NCBI GenBank assembly: GCA_964643755.1
Contig: CAZXUA010000001.1
Coordinates: 15,173-79,172, forward strand
Source: an uncultured Desulfatiglans sp.
GTDB lineage: Bacteria; Desulfobacterota; DSM-4660; Desulfatiglandales; HGW-15
DNA length: 64,000 nucleotides
Direction of reading: 5' to 3'
A program made the position numbers and the translations under genes. Positions 4,123 through 64,000 of the stretch are shown piece by piece. Within the stretch, counting starts at the first letter, position 1. Each line of letters starts with the position of its first letter. Under the pieces are notes generated by a model. The model had not been told where the DNA came from, did no database searches, and worked only from the letters and a program-made list of their open reading frames with translations.

Positions 4123-5091
4123 ATGGAACAGGTTATTTCAGACAGATTGCCGGAAAGGCCAAGGATCATCTACATGGGCACGCCTGACTTTGCTGTGCCT
4201 GCGCTTGTTAGCCTTGTAAAGGCCGGTTATGATATTGAGGCAGTTATTACCCAGCCTGATAAACCAAAGGGGAGGGGGCTTACCCTCTCATTCTGCCCAG
4301 TTAAGGAGGCTGCTATTGCATACGGGCTTAATGTAATGCAGCCTGATAATGTAAATAATCAACCATTCATAGAGGGGTTAAGGCTGATAAACCCTGATCT
4401 TTTTATTGTTGCTGCATTTGGTCAACTGCTTGGGCAGGAGCTGCTATCTGTGCCAAGGTTGGGAGCAATAAATATTCATGCATCACTTCTGCCTCTTTAC
4501 AGGGGTGCAGCGCCCATACAGTGGGCAATACTGGACAACAGGGCTGTAACAGGTATCACACTCATGAAGATGACAAAGGGGCTGGATAAGGGGCCTGTAC
4601 TATTTATGCATGAGGTTGCTATTCATGAAAATGAGACTGCCGGGGGACTTTTTGACAGGCTTGCAGCAATATCAGGGGATGTGATTGTAAGGTTTCTAAA
4701 GGAATTCGCGGGTAAAGAGATATCAGGCACACCGCAGGATGACAGGCTTTCCTCCTATGCCTCAAAGATAACAAAGGAGATGGCAAGGATAGACTGGACA
4801 AAGGGCGCTGTAAGTATTGCCGCGCTTATAAGGGCAATGGACCCCTTTCCCGGTGCAACAACAAATATGAATGGAAAGATCGTGAAACTCTTTTCACCTT
4901 TTGTTATTGATAAGATCACCAGGTCAGAAAAACCTGGAAGGATAATCACTGATGACCCTAACAGGCTTATGGTGGAGACAGGGGAGGGCATCATTGAAAT
5001 AGGTGAGATACAGCTCCCAAATAAAAACAGGATGGCTGTAAAGGCATTTTTAGCTGGCAACAGGATAGAAAAAGAGACCATATTATTATAG
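4123..5091 (+). CDS. fmt: methionyl-tRNA formyltransferase
   Basis: HASLLPLYRGAAPIQWAI motif. Directly follows def. Confidence 0.95.
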   Translation: MEQVISDRLPERPRIIYMGTPDFAVPALVSLVKAGYDIEAVITQPDKPKGRGLTLSFCPVKEAAIAYGLNVMQPDNVNNQPFIEGLRLINPDLFIVAAFGQLLGQELLSVPRLGAINIHASLLPLYRGAAPIQWAILDNRAVTGITLMKMTKGLDKGPVLFMHEVAIHENETAGGLFDRLAAISGDVIVRFLKEFAGKEISGTPQDDRLSSYASKITKEMARIDWTKGAVSIAALIRAMDPFPGATTNMNGKIVKLFSPFVIDKITRSEKPGRIITDDPNRLMVETGEGIIEIGEIQLPNKNRMAVKAFLAGNRIEKETILL

Positions 5092-5105
5092 ATTACAGCA
5101 CTCAT

Positions 5106-5149
5106 CGTTCAGCTTTCAGCTAACTGTTCTGAATGCTTTTAGCTGAACG
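5106..5149. repeat. TCAGC/GCTGA-unit hairpin (CGTTCAGCT ... AGCTGAACG)
   Basis: A 9-bp inverted repeat encloses more TCAGC units. It lies between fmt and the DUF116 gene. Confidence 0.55.
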
Positions 5150-5211
5150 CTAACTTGAAAATTGCGGTCTTATAAAAGGTATAACCGGAAAATAACCTTT
5201 CAGGGCAAAAG

Positions 5212-60627: not shown

Positions 60628-60854
60628 CGGTTTAAGGTTTGCGGTCTACGGTCTACGGAAAAGCAAATGCCGTAAACCTCAAACCGTATACCATAAACCA
60701 TAAATCATATTCCATAAATCGCATACCGTATTTTATATACCACAGACCGCAGACCATAAACCGCTTTTTATATGATAAATCGCCATGGGGATCGATTTCG
60801 ATTGCGATTACGATTGCGATTACGATTACGAAAAAAAATCCGTGTCCGTGGTTA
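60628..60854. repeat. composite repeat region: ~20-bp inverted repeat of CGGTCTA-type units, CCATAAAYC direct repeats, six CGATTN hexamers, and a half CACGGAG-family arm
   Basis: CGGTTTAAGGTTTGCGGTCT (60628-60647) versus AGACCGCAGACCATAAACCG (60744-60763). The hexamer array is at 60793-60830 and TCCGTGTCCGTGGT at about 60839-60852. Confidence 0.7.
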
Positions 60855-62086: not shown

Positions 62087-62187
62087 CGTAGGGGCACAGT
62101 AAGGCGTGCCCTCACAGGCAGGGTGCGCCGCTCCTGCACTGGCACGGTGCGTCTGGCCAGCATGGGCAAGGTGCGCCGTGCCCCTAC
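62087..62187. repeat. GC-rich element: four tandem ~24-bp hairpin units closed by an 11-bp outer stem (CGTAGGGGCAC...GTGCCCCTACG), copy 2 of the family
   Basis: Units GGGCAC..GTGCCC, GCAGG..CCTGC, CTGGC..GCCAG, GGGCA..TGCCC, each with a GGTGCG-containing loop. It lies in the aroG-tyrA intergenic region. Confidence 0.75.
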
Positions 62188-62241
62188 GATGATGTTTATA
62201 AATATTTCATGGCACATGATATCAAAATTATCCCCCAAATA

Positions 62242-63315
62242 TTAAAATTTAAACCTTATCCTGTTACCTGAATGCTGCTCCAGGTAATTAGATGTAGAAA
62301 GTATCAAATCTTCGGTCATCTCCCATGATATACAGCCATCAGTTATTGATACCCCGTATCTGATATTCTCAGGTGTAGCGCCAACAGCCTGACTACCCTC
62401 GTGTATATTGCTCTCAAGCATGAGCCCTGTTATGGATTCATTTCCGTCTATGCGCTGGTTGATTATATCCTGCCAGACCGCTGGCTGCATCAGATAATCC
62501 TTTGATGAATTGCCATGTGAGCAGTCTATTATAATTGAATCACGCAGCCTGTTTTTCTTTAAAAGTGTAATGGTGCTGTTGACACTAACAGAGTCATAGT
62601 TGGGGCGTATGCCTCCCCTTAAGACAATATGCGTATAGGGGTTTCCCTTTGTTTTTACAATACTGGCCCTTCCTGTGCTGTCAATACCGATAAATGTCTG
62701 GGGGCTTGCAGAGGCCTTCATACCATTAACAGCAATAAGCAGATCCCCGTCTGTGCCGTTTTTTAAACCTACAGGCATTGAAAGACCGCTTACCATCTCC
62801 CTGTGTGTCTGGGACTCAGTTGTTCTGGCACCAATAGCGCTCCATGATATAAGGTCTGCAATATACTGGGGGCTTATTGTATCAAGCATTTCAGTAGCGG
62901 CAGGCACACCCATGCCGGTTATCTCAAGCAGCAGCTCTCTTGCAGCCCTTAAGCCTGATTCAATATCACATGAGCCATCAAGACAGGGGTCATTTATCAG
63001 CCCCTTCCACCCGATGCTGGTTCTGGGTTTCTCAAAATAGACCCTCATCACGAGAAACAGTCGGGATGCCACCTTTTCGCTTAACCTTTTTAACCGTGTG
63101 GCATATTCAATTGCCGCCTTTTTATCATGTATTGAACAGGGGCCGGTTATCACCATGAGCCTTTTATCCTTTTTATCCAGTATATCCCTGATAATTTTTC
63201 TTGAAGAGCTGACCGTATCAATTGAGTTTTGAGTAATGGGCAGTTCACTGATAAATCTATCAGGTGAAAGGATAGGGGTATATGACTCAACATAAATATC
63301 AGTTATCTTTTCCAA
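62242..63315 (-). CDS. aroG: 3-deoxy-7-phosphoheptulonate (DAHP) synthase, class I-alpha (AroF/G/H type)
   Basis: VITGPCSIHD, KPRTSIGWKGLINDP, GARTTESQTHRE. TTG start 7 nt after a GGAGG RBS. I cannot call isozyme specificity from sequence; the context suggests Tyr-related (aroF-like). Confidence 0.9.
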   Translation of the reverse strand: MEKITDIYVESYTPILSPDRFISELPITQNSIDTVSSSRKIIRDILDKKDKRLMVITGPCSIHDKKAAIEYATRLKRLSEKVASRLFLVMRVYFEKPRTSIGWKGLINDPCLDGSCDIESGLRAARELLLEITGMGVPAATEMLDTISPQYIADLISWSAIGARTTESQTHREMVSGLSMPVGLKNGTDGDLLIAVNGMKASASPQTFIGIDSTGRASIVKTKGNPYTHIVLRGGIRPNYDSVSVNSTITLLKKNRLRDSIIIDCSHGNSSKDYLMQPAVWQDIINQRIDGNESITGLMLESNIHEGSQAVGATPENIRYGVSITDGCISWEMTEDLILSTSNYLEQHSGNRIRFKF

Positions 63316-63326
63316 TATGTTACCTC

Positions 63327-63366
63327 CAAAAAAAAAGCCGCAGGGAGGTTCTCCCTGCAGCTTTTT
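63327..63366 (-). terminator. attenuator terminator: GCUGCAGGGAG-AAC-CUCCCUGCGGC followed by U9
   Basis: An 11-bp GC-rich stem plus a U9 run on the minus strand, located between the leader ORF and the aroG RBS. Confidence 0.8.
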
Positions 63367-63389
63367 GGATCAATAAAATTAAGACTGAA

Positions 63390-63467
63390 TCAACCGGCTG
63401 CAGGCAGAGCACAGGTGTAGTAATAATAGTAATAATAGCTGTTTGTTCTGCCGGAAAAGTTGTTCAT
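63390..63467 (-). CDS. tyrosine-rich leader peptide MNNFSGRTNSYYYYYYYTCALPAAG
   Basis: 25-codon ORF with 7 consecutive Tyr codons (TAT TAT TAC TAT TAT TAC TAC). It sits between a promoter and a terminator hairpin upstream of aroG-tyrA. Confidence 0.7.
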   Translation of the reverse strand: MNNFSGRTNSYYYYYYYTCALPAAG

Positions 63468-63507
63468 CTTTTAATTCCTGGTAAAATCCTTTTTTATAGG
63501 AAGGAAG

Positions 63508-63535
63508 ATTATCACATCACTTTTACCTCATGCAA
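63508..63535 (-). promoter_or_regulatory. sigma70-type promoter TTGCAT-16-GATAAT for the leader-aroG-tyrA transcript
   Basis: On the minus strand, -35 is at 63535-63530 and -10 at 63513-63508, about 40 nt upstream of the leader ATG. Confidence 0.5.
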
Positions 63536-63832
63536 GGAATATTTTCTCTATGCCCACCCCTTTGCATTTTTACTTAGTGTCCATTTAAGGCAGCTAATAC
63601 TTGACATTATAAAAAGGCTGATAAAATTTGATAATTATTTTTATAGCAAAAAGGGTCGATATGGATAGAGATCAAAAATATATGGATAAAATAACATTGC
63701 CACCAAAAAACAATATATTCATGCGGTTTTTAAACTGGATAGCAAAGGGTGTTTCAAGACCTGAGGTAGGGTCTGGCCAGTGTAAAGGATGAAGTGTCAA
63801 ACCATATGACCCGCCTGTATGGCGGAAAAAAT

Positions 63833-63862
63833 AAAGGAGGCACTGAATTAAGTGCCTCCTTT
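63833..63862. terminator. bidirectional terminator hairpin AAGGAGGCAC-N8-GTGCCTCCTT flanked by A- and T-runs
   Basis: A 10-11-bp stem with TTTT on the plus side and an A-run upstream that gives a U-tract for the convergent minus-strand thiolase. Confidence 0.65.
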
Positions 63863-63886
63863 TTCTCGAATTTCAAATCTCAAATT

Positions 63887-64000
63887 TTATATCTGCTCCA
63901 GTACCATTGCGATACCTTGACCGCCGCCTATGCAAAGGCTGCCCAGGCCAAGTGCGTCGCCTTTTCTTTTCATCTGGCTGATAAGCGAAACAAGCAGCCT
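63887..64000 (-). CDS. acetyl-CoA acetyltransferase (thiolase), C-terminal end only (gene continues beyond the window)
   Basis: Minus-strand translation is ...LLVSLISQMKRKGDALGLGSLCIGGGQGIAMVLEQI*, the canonical thiolase C-terminus (CIGGGQG). Confidence 0.8.
   Translation of the reverse strand, partial: RLLVSLISQMKRKGDALGLGSLCIGGGQGIAMVLEQI

Follow-up and report, generated by a model that had tools for sequence, protein, structure and literature searches.

How does a bacterium adjust its aroF-tyrA operon to the tyrosine supply when a run of seven tyrosine codons stands shortly ahead of the first gene? Few gene switches are understood as well as leader-peptide attenuation, and the control of aroF-tyrA by tyrosine is taught as the story of a protein, TyrR. 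The question is raised by a stretch of 64,000 nucleotides from an uncultured Desulfatiglans sp. (contig CAZXUA010000001.1, positions 15,173 to 79,172), referred to in full as the window, on the minus strand of which a short open reading frame (ORF) and a hairpin precede the genes for a class I 3-deoxy-D-arabino-heptulosonate-7-phosphate (DAHP) synthase and a chorismate mutase/prephenate dehydrogenase. A first-pass annotation of the window had proposed that these elements form an attenuator. The folding and comparative analysis described here indicates that the element is very probably a ribosome-mediated leader-peptide transcription attenuator that senses charged tRNA-Tyr and controls aroF-tyrA. 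The evidence, all of it drawn from sequence, is of four kinds: the elements and their conservation, the mutual exclusivity and covariation of the RNA helices, the geometry of ribosome masking in silico, and the match between leader codons and operon content. In this interpretation the leader ORF is probably translated, the hairpin with its U9 tract is predicted to terminate transcription, and readthrough should increase upon tyrosine starvation.

All sequence-level features that define the trpL/pheL/hisL class are present in the window (coordinates in Table 1). The 25-codon ORF with seven consecutive Tyr codons described in the first-pass annotation was recovered both from the sequence and from the ORF list, and so were the 11-bp hairpin followed by nine uridines, the GGAGG and TTG start of the DAHP synthase gene, and tyrA behind it. 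This 7-Tyr run is the only one of at least five Tyr in the six frames of the window, and 200 random windows matched to it in dinucleotide content contained no run of that length. The 185-nt leader folds with an energy of -52.7 kcal/mol (z = -5.2). A leucine reading of the same run (LLLLLLL, 63438-63418, minus strand, in the neighbouring frame) was rejected, there being no ORF of at least 20 aa that covers it in that frame and the relatives swapping Phe, Tyr and Trp codons, not Leu codons. The leader ATG is preceded by GGA or GGAG at identical spacing in the relatives, and the GGAGG of the DAHP synthase gene is kept in eight of the 12 loci with Tyr-type leaders and degenerate in the remaining four. 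The distance from the leader stop to the DAHP synthase start is 74 nt in the window and 81-314 nt in relatives.

Of the promoter originally given as TTGCAT-16-GATAAT, the -35 hexamer was retained and the rest was revised. In alignment A2 of the 12 Tyr-type loci, CTTGCA is found at the -35 position in 10 and CTTGAT in the two most distant, and the -10 pattern TGnTAnnnT is invariant (12/12); this conserved -10 overlaps GATAAT by 4 nt and sets the spacer at 18 nt, not 16. The transcript would start near 63499, about 30 nt 5' of the leader ATG. A promoter at 63634-63606 obtained from a simple scan was dropped, preference being given to TTGCAT / TGnTAATCT for its phylogenetic conservation; the scan had missed the promoter of the first-pass annotation, whose -35 matched at three of six positions. 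A simple terminator scan likewise listed the attenuator hairpin on the plus strand only, which is attributed to the way in which it counts the A/U extension of the stem.

At the RNA level, regions 1 and 3 of the leader are near-copies and each is complementary to region 2, which yields the classical 1:2 / 2:3 / 3:4 layout. The antiterminator pairs UCU(G)CCUGCAGC (63408-63397) with GCUGCAGG(G)AGA (63361-63350), so that the complementarity joining the last leader codons to the terminator's 5' arm, previously reported as 8 nt long, actually extends over 11 bp around one G.G mismatch; the UGA, thought to lie 6 nt past this segment, follows the end of region 2 after 4 nt. Folding recovers the expected competition between two structures, both of which carry compensatory changes: the antiterminator 2:3 has an energy of -24.4 kcal/mol and the terminator hairpin one of -20.2 kcal/mol, or -25.5 kcal/mol with its A5/U9 extension, and the two are predicted to be nearly iso-energetic. 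The 1:2 hairpin (6 bp, -9.4 kcal/mol in the window) is present in the minimum-free-energy fold, and in a free truncated transcript it loses to 2:3.

The three helices were examined across 34 sequences, with controls in which the partner strand was slid by 1-3 columns and in which 29-57% of the cells were paired over the three helices. The terminator 3:4 is paired in 96.2% of cells, with changes on both sides in 6 of 11 pairs; the antiterminator 2:3 in 84.9% (slid controls 30-47%), with both-side changes in 5 of 12 pairs; and the 1:2 helix in 86.5% (slid controls 29-38%), with both-side changes in 2 of 8 pairs. The antiterminator pair formed by columns 91-136 of the alignment is G-C in 20 sequences and A-U in 9. 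Column 136 lies in region 3 (U63359 in the window), is mostly C, and is U in Tyr-type members; the same base is also paired in the terminator, as C-G, U.G or U-A. Since this column is paired in both alternatives, the terminator and antiterminator helices are both under selection.

The position of the ribosome was then simulated by means of constrained folds in which a footprint of 29 nt was masked on the mRNA. In a transcript ending before region 4, the antiterminator forms when the RNA is free and when the A site is placed on any of the Tyr codons 11-17, and it disappears altogether once the A site is moved to the UGA. Region 1 is masked as well by a ribosome whose A site holds the first Tyr codon. 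In these truncated-transcript folds a stall at the Tyr codons permits the antiterminator and a ribosome at the UGA abolishes it, as the first-pass annotation had supposed, and such predicted behaviour is what the attenuation model requires. In the mechanism proposed, a ribosome would move along the 25-codon leader while RNA polymerase proceeds. With ample Tyr-tRNA it would pass the seven Tyr codons, reach the UGA and mask region 2; regions 3 and 4 would then pair, and the 11-bp hairpin with its U9 tract would stop transcription 12 nt ahead of the DAHP synthase start codon. With scarce Tyr-tRNA it would stall at codons 11-17, covering region 1 as well, and the free region 2 would capture region 3 upon its emergence, in which case no terminator would form and the polymerase would enter aroF-tyrA. 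The pairing of regions 1 and 2 in untranslated RNA could serve as a pause hairpin or an anti-antiterminator, although it is weak in the window.

The conservation of the element was assessed in 173 loci, the source contigs of the window included, that were collected by DAHP synthase scans of one-genome-per-species contigs and of metagenome contigs, by a protein search and by look-ups of eleven returned proteins. The closest named relatives are uncultured Desulfobacterota (Desulfatiglans sp., Desulfobacteraceae, 'Deltaproteobacteria bacterium'), and the window sequence is also present in the Logan assemblies of SRR24332395 and SRR24332393. The element was found in the window and in 36 other distinct loci, from bacteria of the sulfate-reducer type and always 5' of the DAHP synthase gene of one Desulfobacterota clade. 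Its layout consists of a Shine-Dalgarno sequence, an ORF of mostly about 25 codons with 6-9 aromatic codons, a stop, a non-conserved spacer, and a hairpin (family consensus AGCCGCAGGCAGA...GCCUGCGGC) followed by a U tract. A Tyr-run or aromatic-run mini-ORF with a terminator is therefore conserved in orthologous loci, 12 of them with Tyr-only and 25 with mixed leaders. The sole exception in the clade is L006 (2600-3000; Desulfobacterales, 58% DAHP synthase identity), in which no leader or terminator was recognizable. The gene 5' of the element varies (thiolase, URO-D, divergent NifU, ADH, divergent acyl-CoA dehydrogenase, PadR), and because these upstream neighbours differ and some are divergent, the element can be assigned to the DAHP synthase operon and not to the preceding gene.

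A covariance model, R1, was built from 34 leaders (alignment A3). On the 64-kb window it gives exactly one match (63328-63473, 117.5 bits), and its strong matches in the 173 loci (76-123 bits) lie only 5' of Desulfobacterota-type DAHP synthase genes. Two matches fall outside the training set, namely L118 (90.7 bits) and L173 of Desulfonema limicola (112.6 bits); the other matches are weak (24-35 bits) and correspond to minus-strand hits over terminators, plus one 5' of tyrS in L166. No match was obtained in the gamma-proteobacterial, cyanobacterial or other loci among the 173, and no consistent Tyr-rich mini-ORF was found 5' of 36 gamma-proteobacterial aroF-tyrA loci or in the cyanobacterial and other loci. 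Two gamma-proteobacterial (Colwellia-like) loci, L057 and L151, share a reading ..LYYYLPY.. about 130 nt 5' of aroF-tyrA, with no convincing start in L057, a GTG start in L151 and no R1 match in either; this reading could reflect either coincidence or the conservation of a DNA site. As for L173, it comes from a cultured, fully sequenced organism (CP061799.1, 4036018-4042103), and its mixed-type attenuator (VTQFYAGRNFYFWYYFFTTHLPGVR) is followed by a cluster comprising the DAHP synthase gene, aroB, a second DAHP synthase gene (398 aa) and a gene for chorismate mutase/prephenate dehydratase. Among the loci collected, none with a Tyr-only leader could be traced to a cultured organism.

The composition of the codon run was compared with the genes that follow it. 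Tyr-only leaders, with 6-7 Tyr and no Phe or Trp, are found in 12 loci whose DAHP synthases are 66-100% identical to that of the window, and in 11 of these tyrA comes after the DAHP synthase gene. Mixed Phe/Tyr/Trp leaders are found in 25 loci, in which tyrA never follows the DAHP synthase gene and aroB does so in eight; in four of these mixed loci the available sequence stops within 250 nt past the DAHP synthase gene. In L008 (2352-2495) a Phe-rich FFFWFYF run precedes the pair DAHP synthase-prephenate dehydratase (pheA), and in L031 (2828-2960) a Trp-containing AWWYYF run precedes the pair DAHP synthase-anthranilate synthase (trpE). Tyrosyl-tRNA synthetase is the subject of a further observation in L166 (81% DAHP synthase identity), where a second Tyr-run leader, MIKPAGNNYYYLYYYPSYSGERAIAPVV, lies between tyrA and tyrS (5013-5160), with a hairpin (AGCCUCCAGG..CCUGGGGCU) and a U7 tract about 40 nt ahead of tyrS, a gene called on its tRNA-synt_1b and S4 domains. 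This arrangement points to attenuation of an aminoacyl-tRNA synthetase gene through Tyr codons, comparable to the case of pheST in E. coli. This leader is not a close copy of the one ahead of the DAHP synthase gene, since R1 scores it at just 32 bits, and it cannot be generalized because tyrS is absent from the window and from the collected loci other than L166.

These associations invite a broader proposal, the truth of which we regard as an even bet: within the clade, one scaffold (regions 1-4, the terminator and the place before the DAHP synthase gene) would have been re-targeted by swapping the codon run, giving the combinations Tyr/tyrA, Phe/pheA, Trp/trpE and mixed/aroB. Such an arrangement would be the RNA-only counterpart of the aroF/aroG/aroH isoenzymes of E. 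coli, which depend on the TyrR and TrpR proteins, and together with the tyrS leader of L166 it would make up a tyrosine 'attenuon'. The family would in that case amount to a natural specificity experiment, in which the codons are exchanged and the RNA scaffold stays the same.

Ten loci with mixed-aromatic leaders (L002, L005, L007, L008, L084, L088, L089, L092, L097 and L173) carry a tandem second hairpin with a U tract, 10-60 nt past the first, while the Tyr-type element of the window has a single terminator only. The 5' arm of the second terminator (e.g. GGCCGUGGGG) is complementary to region 4 over 8 bp (-12 to -17 kcal/mol in most), and the two covary between loci. This complementarity and covariation suggest a relay in which 2:3 pairing leads to 4:5 pairing and prevents 5:6, one leader peptide thereby governing two terminators.

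Several points weigh against tyrosine-sensing attenuation at this locus. The minimum-free-energy fold of the full-length leader keeps the terminator, even when the Tyr codons are masked. Given that the terminator appears in every full-length fold, the two states can be told apart only in the co-transcriptional (truncated) folds and not by equilibrium folding; the choice between states is accordingly assumed to be kinetic and not thermodynamic, as in classical attenuators. An untranslated leader may also read through rather than terminate, unlike the 'superattenuation' of trp, a behaviour to be expected because 1:2 (-9.4 kcal/mol) is far weaker than 2:3 (-24.4 kcal/mol). On the comparative side, one Tyr-only locus, L171, lacks tyrA after the DAHP synthase gene; the Tyr-only loci form one clade, so the link between Tyr-only leaders and tyrA may reflect a single evolutionary event; and the Phe and Trp variants are represented by one locus each. 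Finally, tyrosine availability is reported to be without effect on the aroR attenuator of Corynebacterium glutamicum (PMC11802643).

Alternative explanations have to be judged against the same body of evidence. One of them is nascent-chain arrest of the TnaC type, in which a conserved peptide would sense free tyrosine or another ligand and a ribosome held near the stop would set the terminator. The motifs ..SGR.. before and ..GLPxx(R/G/C)-stop after the aromatic run are indeed conserved, and most members have a Pro four residues ahead of the stop. Yet these residues fall precisely on regions 1 and 2 of the RNA, which SGR and GLP overlap, and they are conserved at their wobble positions, as the GGU CUG CCU of region 2 illustrates. 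In the aromatic run, by comparison, the nucleotides vary (TAT, TAC, TTT, TTC, TGG) while the residues remain aromatic. Variable codons with constant aromatics, flanked by wobble-conserved segments, indicate that selection acts on codons in the run and on RNA in the flanks. In agreement with this, the Pro has changed to Ser three times through a C->U substitution that retains a G.U pair (L001, L025, L091), Leu-Pro has become Ala-Pro in one subgroup, and some members carry changes in both partners of the matching antiterminator pairs. A ribosome halted at the stop codon would moreover mask region 2 and favour termination, which has the wrong sign if the ligand is scarce and is redundant if it is abundant. 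Peptide-mediated arrest is thus considered very improbable.

The alternative structures by themselves do not name their selector, and Tyr T-boxes are known to control tyrS and aromatic genes in Firmicutes (cited in PMC1262725), which leaves room for a terminator switched by a trans factor (an RNA-binding protein, an uncharged tRNA acting on a T-box, or a small molecule acting on a riboswitch) next to an incidental mini-ORF. An incidental ORF would hardly be expected to keep its start codon, Shine-Dalgarno spacing, frame and stop in 37 loci, along with its length apart from a few possible 5' extensions, nor to preserve aromatic residues through changes of codon and to follow the downstream genes in the composition of its run. 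The unpaired spacer is not conserved, so that it offers no candidate ligand pocket, and a scan of 62800-64000 against Rfam 15 up to E<=10 matched no family, T-box included, at the gathering threshold (the best leader-type score was that of Thr_leader, 19.2 versus 55 bits), consistent with the earlier statement that this is not a standard annotated element. A trans-acting selector is accordingly given little credence.

It could also be argued that the element works after transcription, through reinitiation or translational coupling or as a transcript-stabilizing hairpin, and involves no amino-acid-dependent termination. The U tract adjoins the GGAGG of the DAHP synthase gene and ends 12 nt from its start codon, a terminating ribosome would be released nearby, and reinitiation by leader genes has been proposed to raise translation (PMC4833913). 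The distances from leader stop to gene start given above are nevertheless too long for coupling, and a post-transcriptional role leaves the aromatic run, the conserved 2:3 complementarity and the U tracts unexplained; the tandem second terminator of about 10 relatives would make sense solely for the control of termination. Such a role is therefore most unlikely. As to a chance ORF beside the terminator of the thiolase gene, AT-rich sequence in which TAT/TAC repeats are not exotic and a hairpin that looks bidirectional, with A5 before and U9 after, might have produced one, but the thiolase gene owns another terminator, the random windows are devoid of such runs and the element is kept where the upstream gene differs or is divergent, by which the comparative data refute this idea as far as computation can and reduce its likelihood to almost nothing.

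With tyrosine-responsive attenuation retained as the explanation of the element, the operon itself can be described. The DAHP synthase scores 502 bits against NCBIfam NF009395 (cut-off 343) and stays under the cut-offs of the AroG- and AroH-specific models; the TyrA protein scores 435 bits against NF008400 (cut-off 273). The genes beyond tyrA are convergent, which makes tyrA the final gene and the operon one of two genes. On the other side, the thiolase gene that precedes the element has a separate terminator about 470 nt farther upstream, at 63862-63833. A sub-threshold Rfam match to L20_leader over this terminator (63823-63974, minus strand; 24.5 versus 58.7 bits) was judged to be due to chance because it is based on a hairpin and a U tract. 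The aroF-tyrA spacer measures 234 nt in the window versus 14-136 nt in nine close relatives. Within this AT-rich spacer lies a GC-rich insert of about 100 nt (62087-62188, minus strand) composed of three to four 24-nt direct repeats (GGCACGGTGCG...) that form one long imperfect hairpin (-55.4 kcal/mol, z = -3.3) devoid of a U tract. The insert is missing from those close-relative spacers that were read and occurs just once in the window; a REP-like element and an element of mRNA stability are candidate identities.

Table 1. Coordinates of the leader, its regulatory parts and the operon genes in the window
Feature	Coordinates	Strand	Basis or remarks
Promoter -35 hexamer TTGCAT	63535-63530	-	Read from sequence; position kept in Tyr-type loci
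Extended -10 TG-A-TAATCT	63514-63506	-	18-nt spacer from -35 hexamer
Leader Shine-Dalgarno AGGA	63479-63476	-	8 nt ahead of ATG
Leader ORF, 25 codons + UGA, ATG start, MNNFSGRTNSYYYYYYYTCALPAAG	63467->63390	-	Sequence and ORF list
Region 1 GGCAGA	63452-63447	-	Family consensus CAGGCAGA; precedes aromatic run; pairs with UCUGCC of region 2
Seven consecutive Tyr codons TAT TAT TAC TAT TAT TAC TAC, leader codons 11-17	63437->63417	-	Regulatory codons
Region 2 UCUGCCUGCAGC	63408-63397	-	Leader codons 20-24; 5' strand of antiterminator; consensus UCUGCCUG...
Region 3 GCUGCAGGGAGA	63361-63350	-	Terminator 5' arm and first loop base; consensus ...GCAGGCAGA; partner is region 2 or 4
Region 4 CUCCCUGCGGC	63347-63337	-	Terminator 3' arm
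Terminator hairpin GCUGCAGGGAG-AAC-CUCCCUGCGGC	63361->63337	-	11 bp including one U.G; A5 in front
U9 tract of intrinsic terminator	63336->63328	-	Sequence
DAHP synthase Shine-Dalgarno GGAGG	63327-63323	-	Abuts U tract
Class I DAHP synthase, 357 aa, TTG start	63315->62242	-	PF00793
Bifunctional chorismate mutase/prephenate dehydrogenase, TyrA T-protein type, 377 aa	62007->60874	-	CM_2 + PDH_N + PDH_C

If correct, this reading adds tyrosine as a new amino acid to the classic leader-peptide mechanism, no published tyrosine example of which was found. In the window locus and its 36 relatives, charged tRNA-Tyr would be the likely signal for the first committed aromatic step and for the tyrosine branch. 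The covariance model can be used to annotate such loci in Desulfobacterota, where the regulation of amino-acid synthesis is almost uncharted, and the element, a compact and protein-free candidate tyrosine-responsive switch of about 170 nt, may serve synthetic biology.

With regard to known systems, the searchable literature yielded no Tyr-run leader peptide and no aromatic attenuator of Desulfobacterota; many subscription papers lie outside its coverage, and this absence is not proof. The first-pass annotation had called such an attenuator unusual, which holds for the Tyr run but has to be qualified by the existence of two leader-peptide precedents ahead of DAHP synthase genes. The first is aroR-aroF of C. 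glutamicum, in which a leader peptide with a Phe-Tyr-Phe motif precedes the DAHP synthase gene (PMC11802643 and PMC4046766, the latter of which predicted the attenuator). Its readthrough was found experimentally to go up under amino-acid limitation, with a response to Phe (Neshat et al. 2014, as reported in PMC11802643). The present element is set apart from it by 6-7 Tyr codons and the lack of Phe and Trp, by an operon that ends in tyrA and by its host phylum. The second, uORFC-13-1 of Acholeplasma, is a candidate upstream ORF with Phe codons and an intrinsic terminator 5' of aroF, known from comparative analysis only (PMC8632094); it differs from the present element in being Phe-based, in its phylum and in its structure, and no Rfam match was obtained here, provided that the motif is in Rfam 15. 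Terminator/antiterminator pairs have also been predicted 5' of aroF-tyrA in two Vibrio species in a generic attenuator database, with no leader peptide mentioned (PMC1173090, table 7).

The Tyr T-boxes of Firmicutes, found ahead of tyrS and aromatic genes, resemble the element in that the charging of tRNA-Tyr is sensed through a terminator/antiterminator switch. T-boxes, however, bind uncharged tRNA directly and do not need translation, whereas the window locus gives no T-box match and has a run of Tyr codons in a predicted leader ORF. The TyrR-repressed aroF-tyrA operon of E. coli shares the same pair of genes in the same order, a class I DAHP synthase followed by a chorismate mutase/prephenate dehydrogenase T-protein, and presumably the same physiological aim of tyrosine-specific control. 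There, control is exerted by a protein acting at TyrR boxes in the promoter, while the element in the window is predicted to act as RNA. This contrast, already drawn in the first-pass annotation, is borne out by the fetched enterobacterial loci, which have neither the leader nor an R1 match, and by the window, in which no TyrR box of the E. coli type (TGTAAA-N6-TTTACA, up to 3 mismatches) was found above position 60772, and so none 5' of the operon. A tRNA-Tyr-dependent component of E. coli aroF-tyrA control has been hypothesised only (Camakaris et al. 1980, cited in PMC2659441 and PMC8632094) and is not known to have been given a structural basis.

The closest likeness is to the attenuators of E. 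coli and Salmonella (trpL-trpEDCBA, pheL-pheA, hisL, leuL, thrL and ilvL), with which the element shares a promoter, a short ORF with tandem codons for the end product, regions 1-4, an intrinsic terminator just ahead of the first structural gene and a stop codon sited for the masking of region 2. To our knowledge, no member of this textbook set has Tyr regulatory codons. The element departs from the set in the regulatory codon itself, in showing no homology of sequence or structure to the leader families of Rfam, in belonging to Desulfobacterota and in its region 1, which is weak (-9.4 kcal/mol) and lies upstream of the regulatory codons instead of containing them. The novelty lies in the amino acid proposed to be sensed, in the operon and in the RNA family, and not in the mechanism, which is a textbook one.

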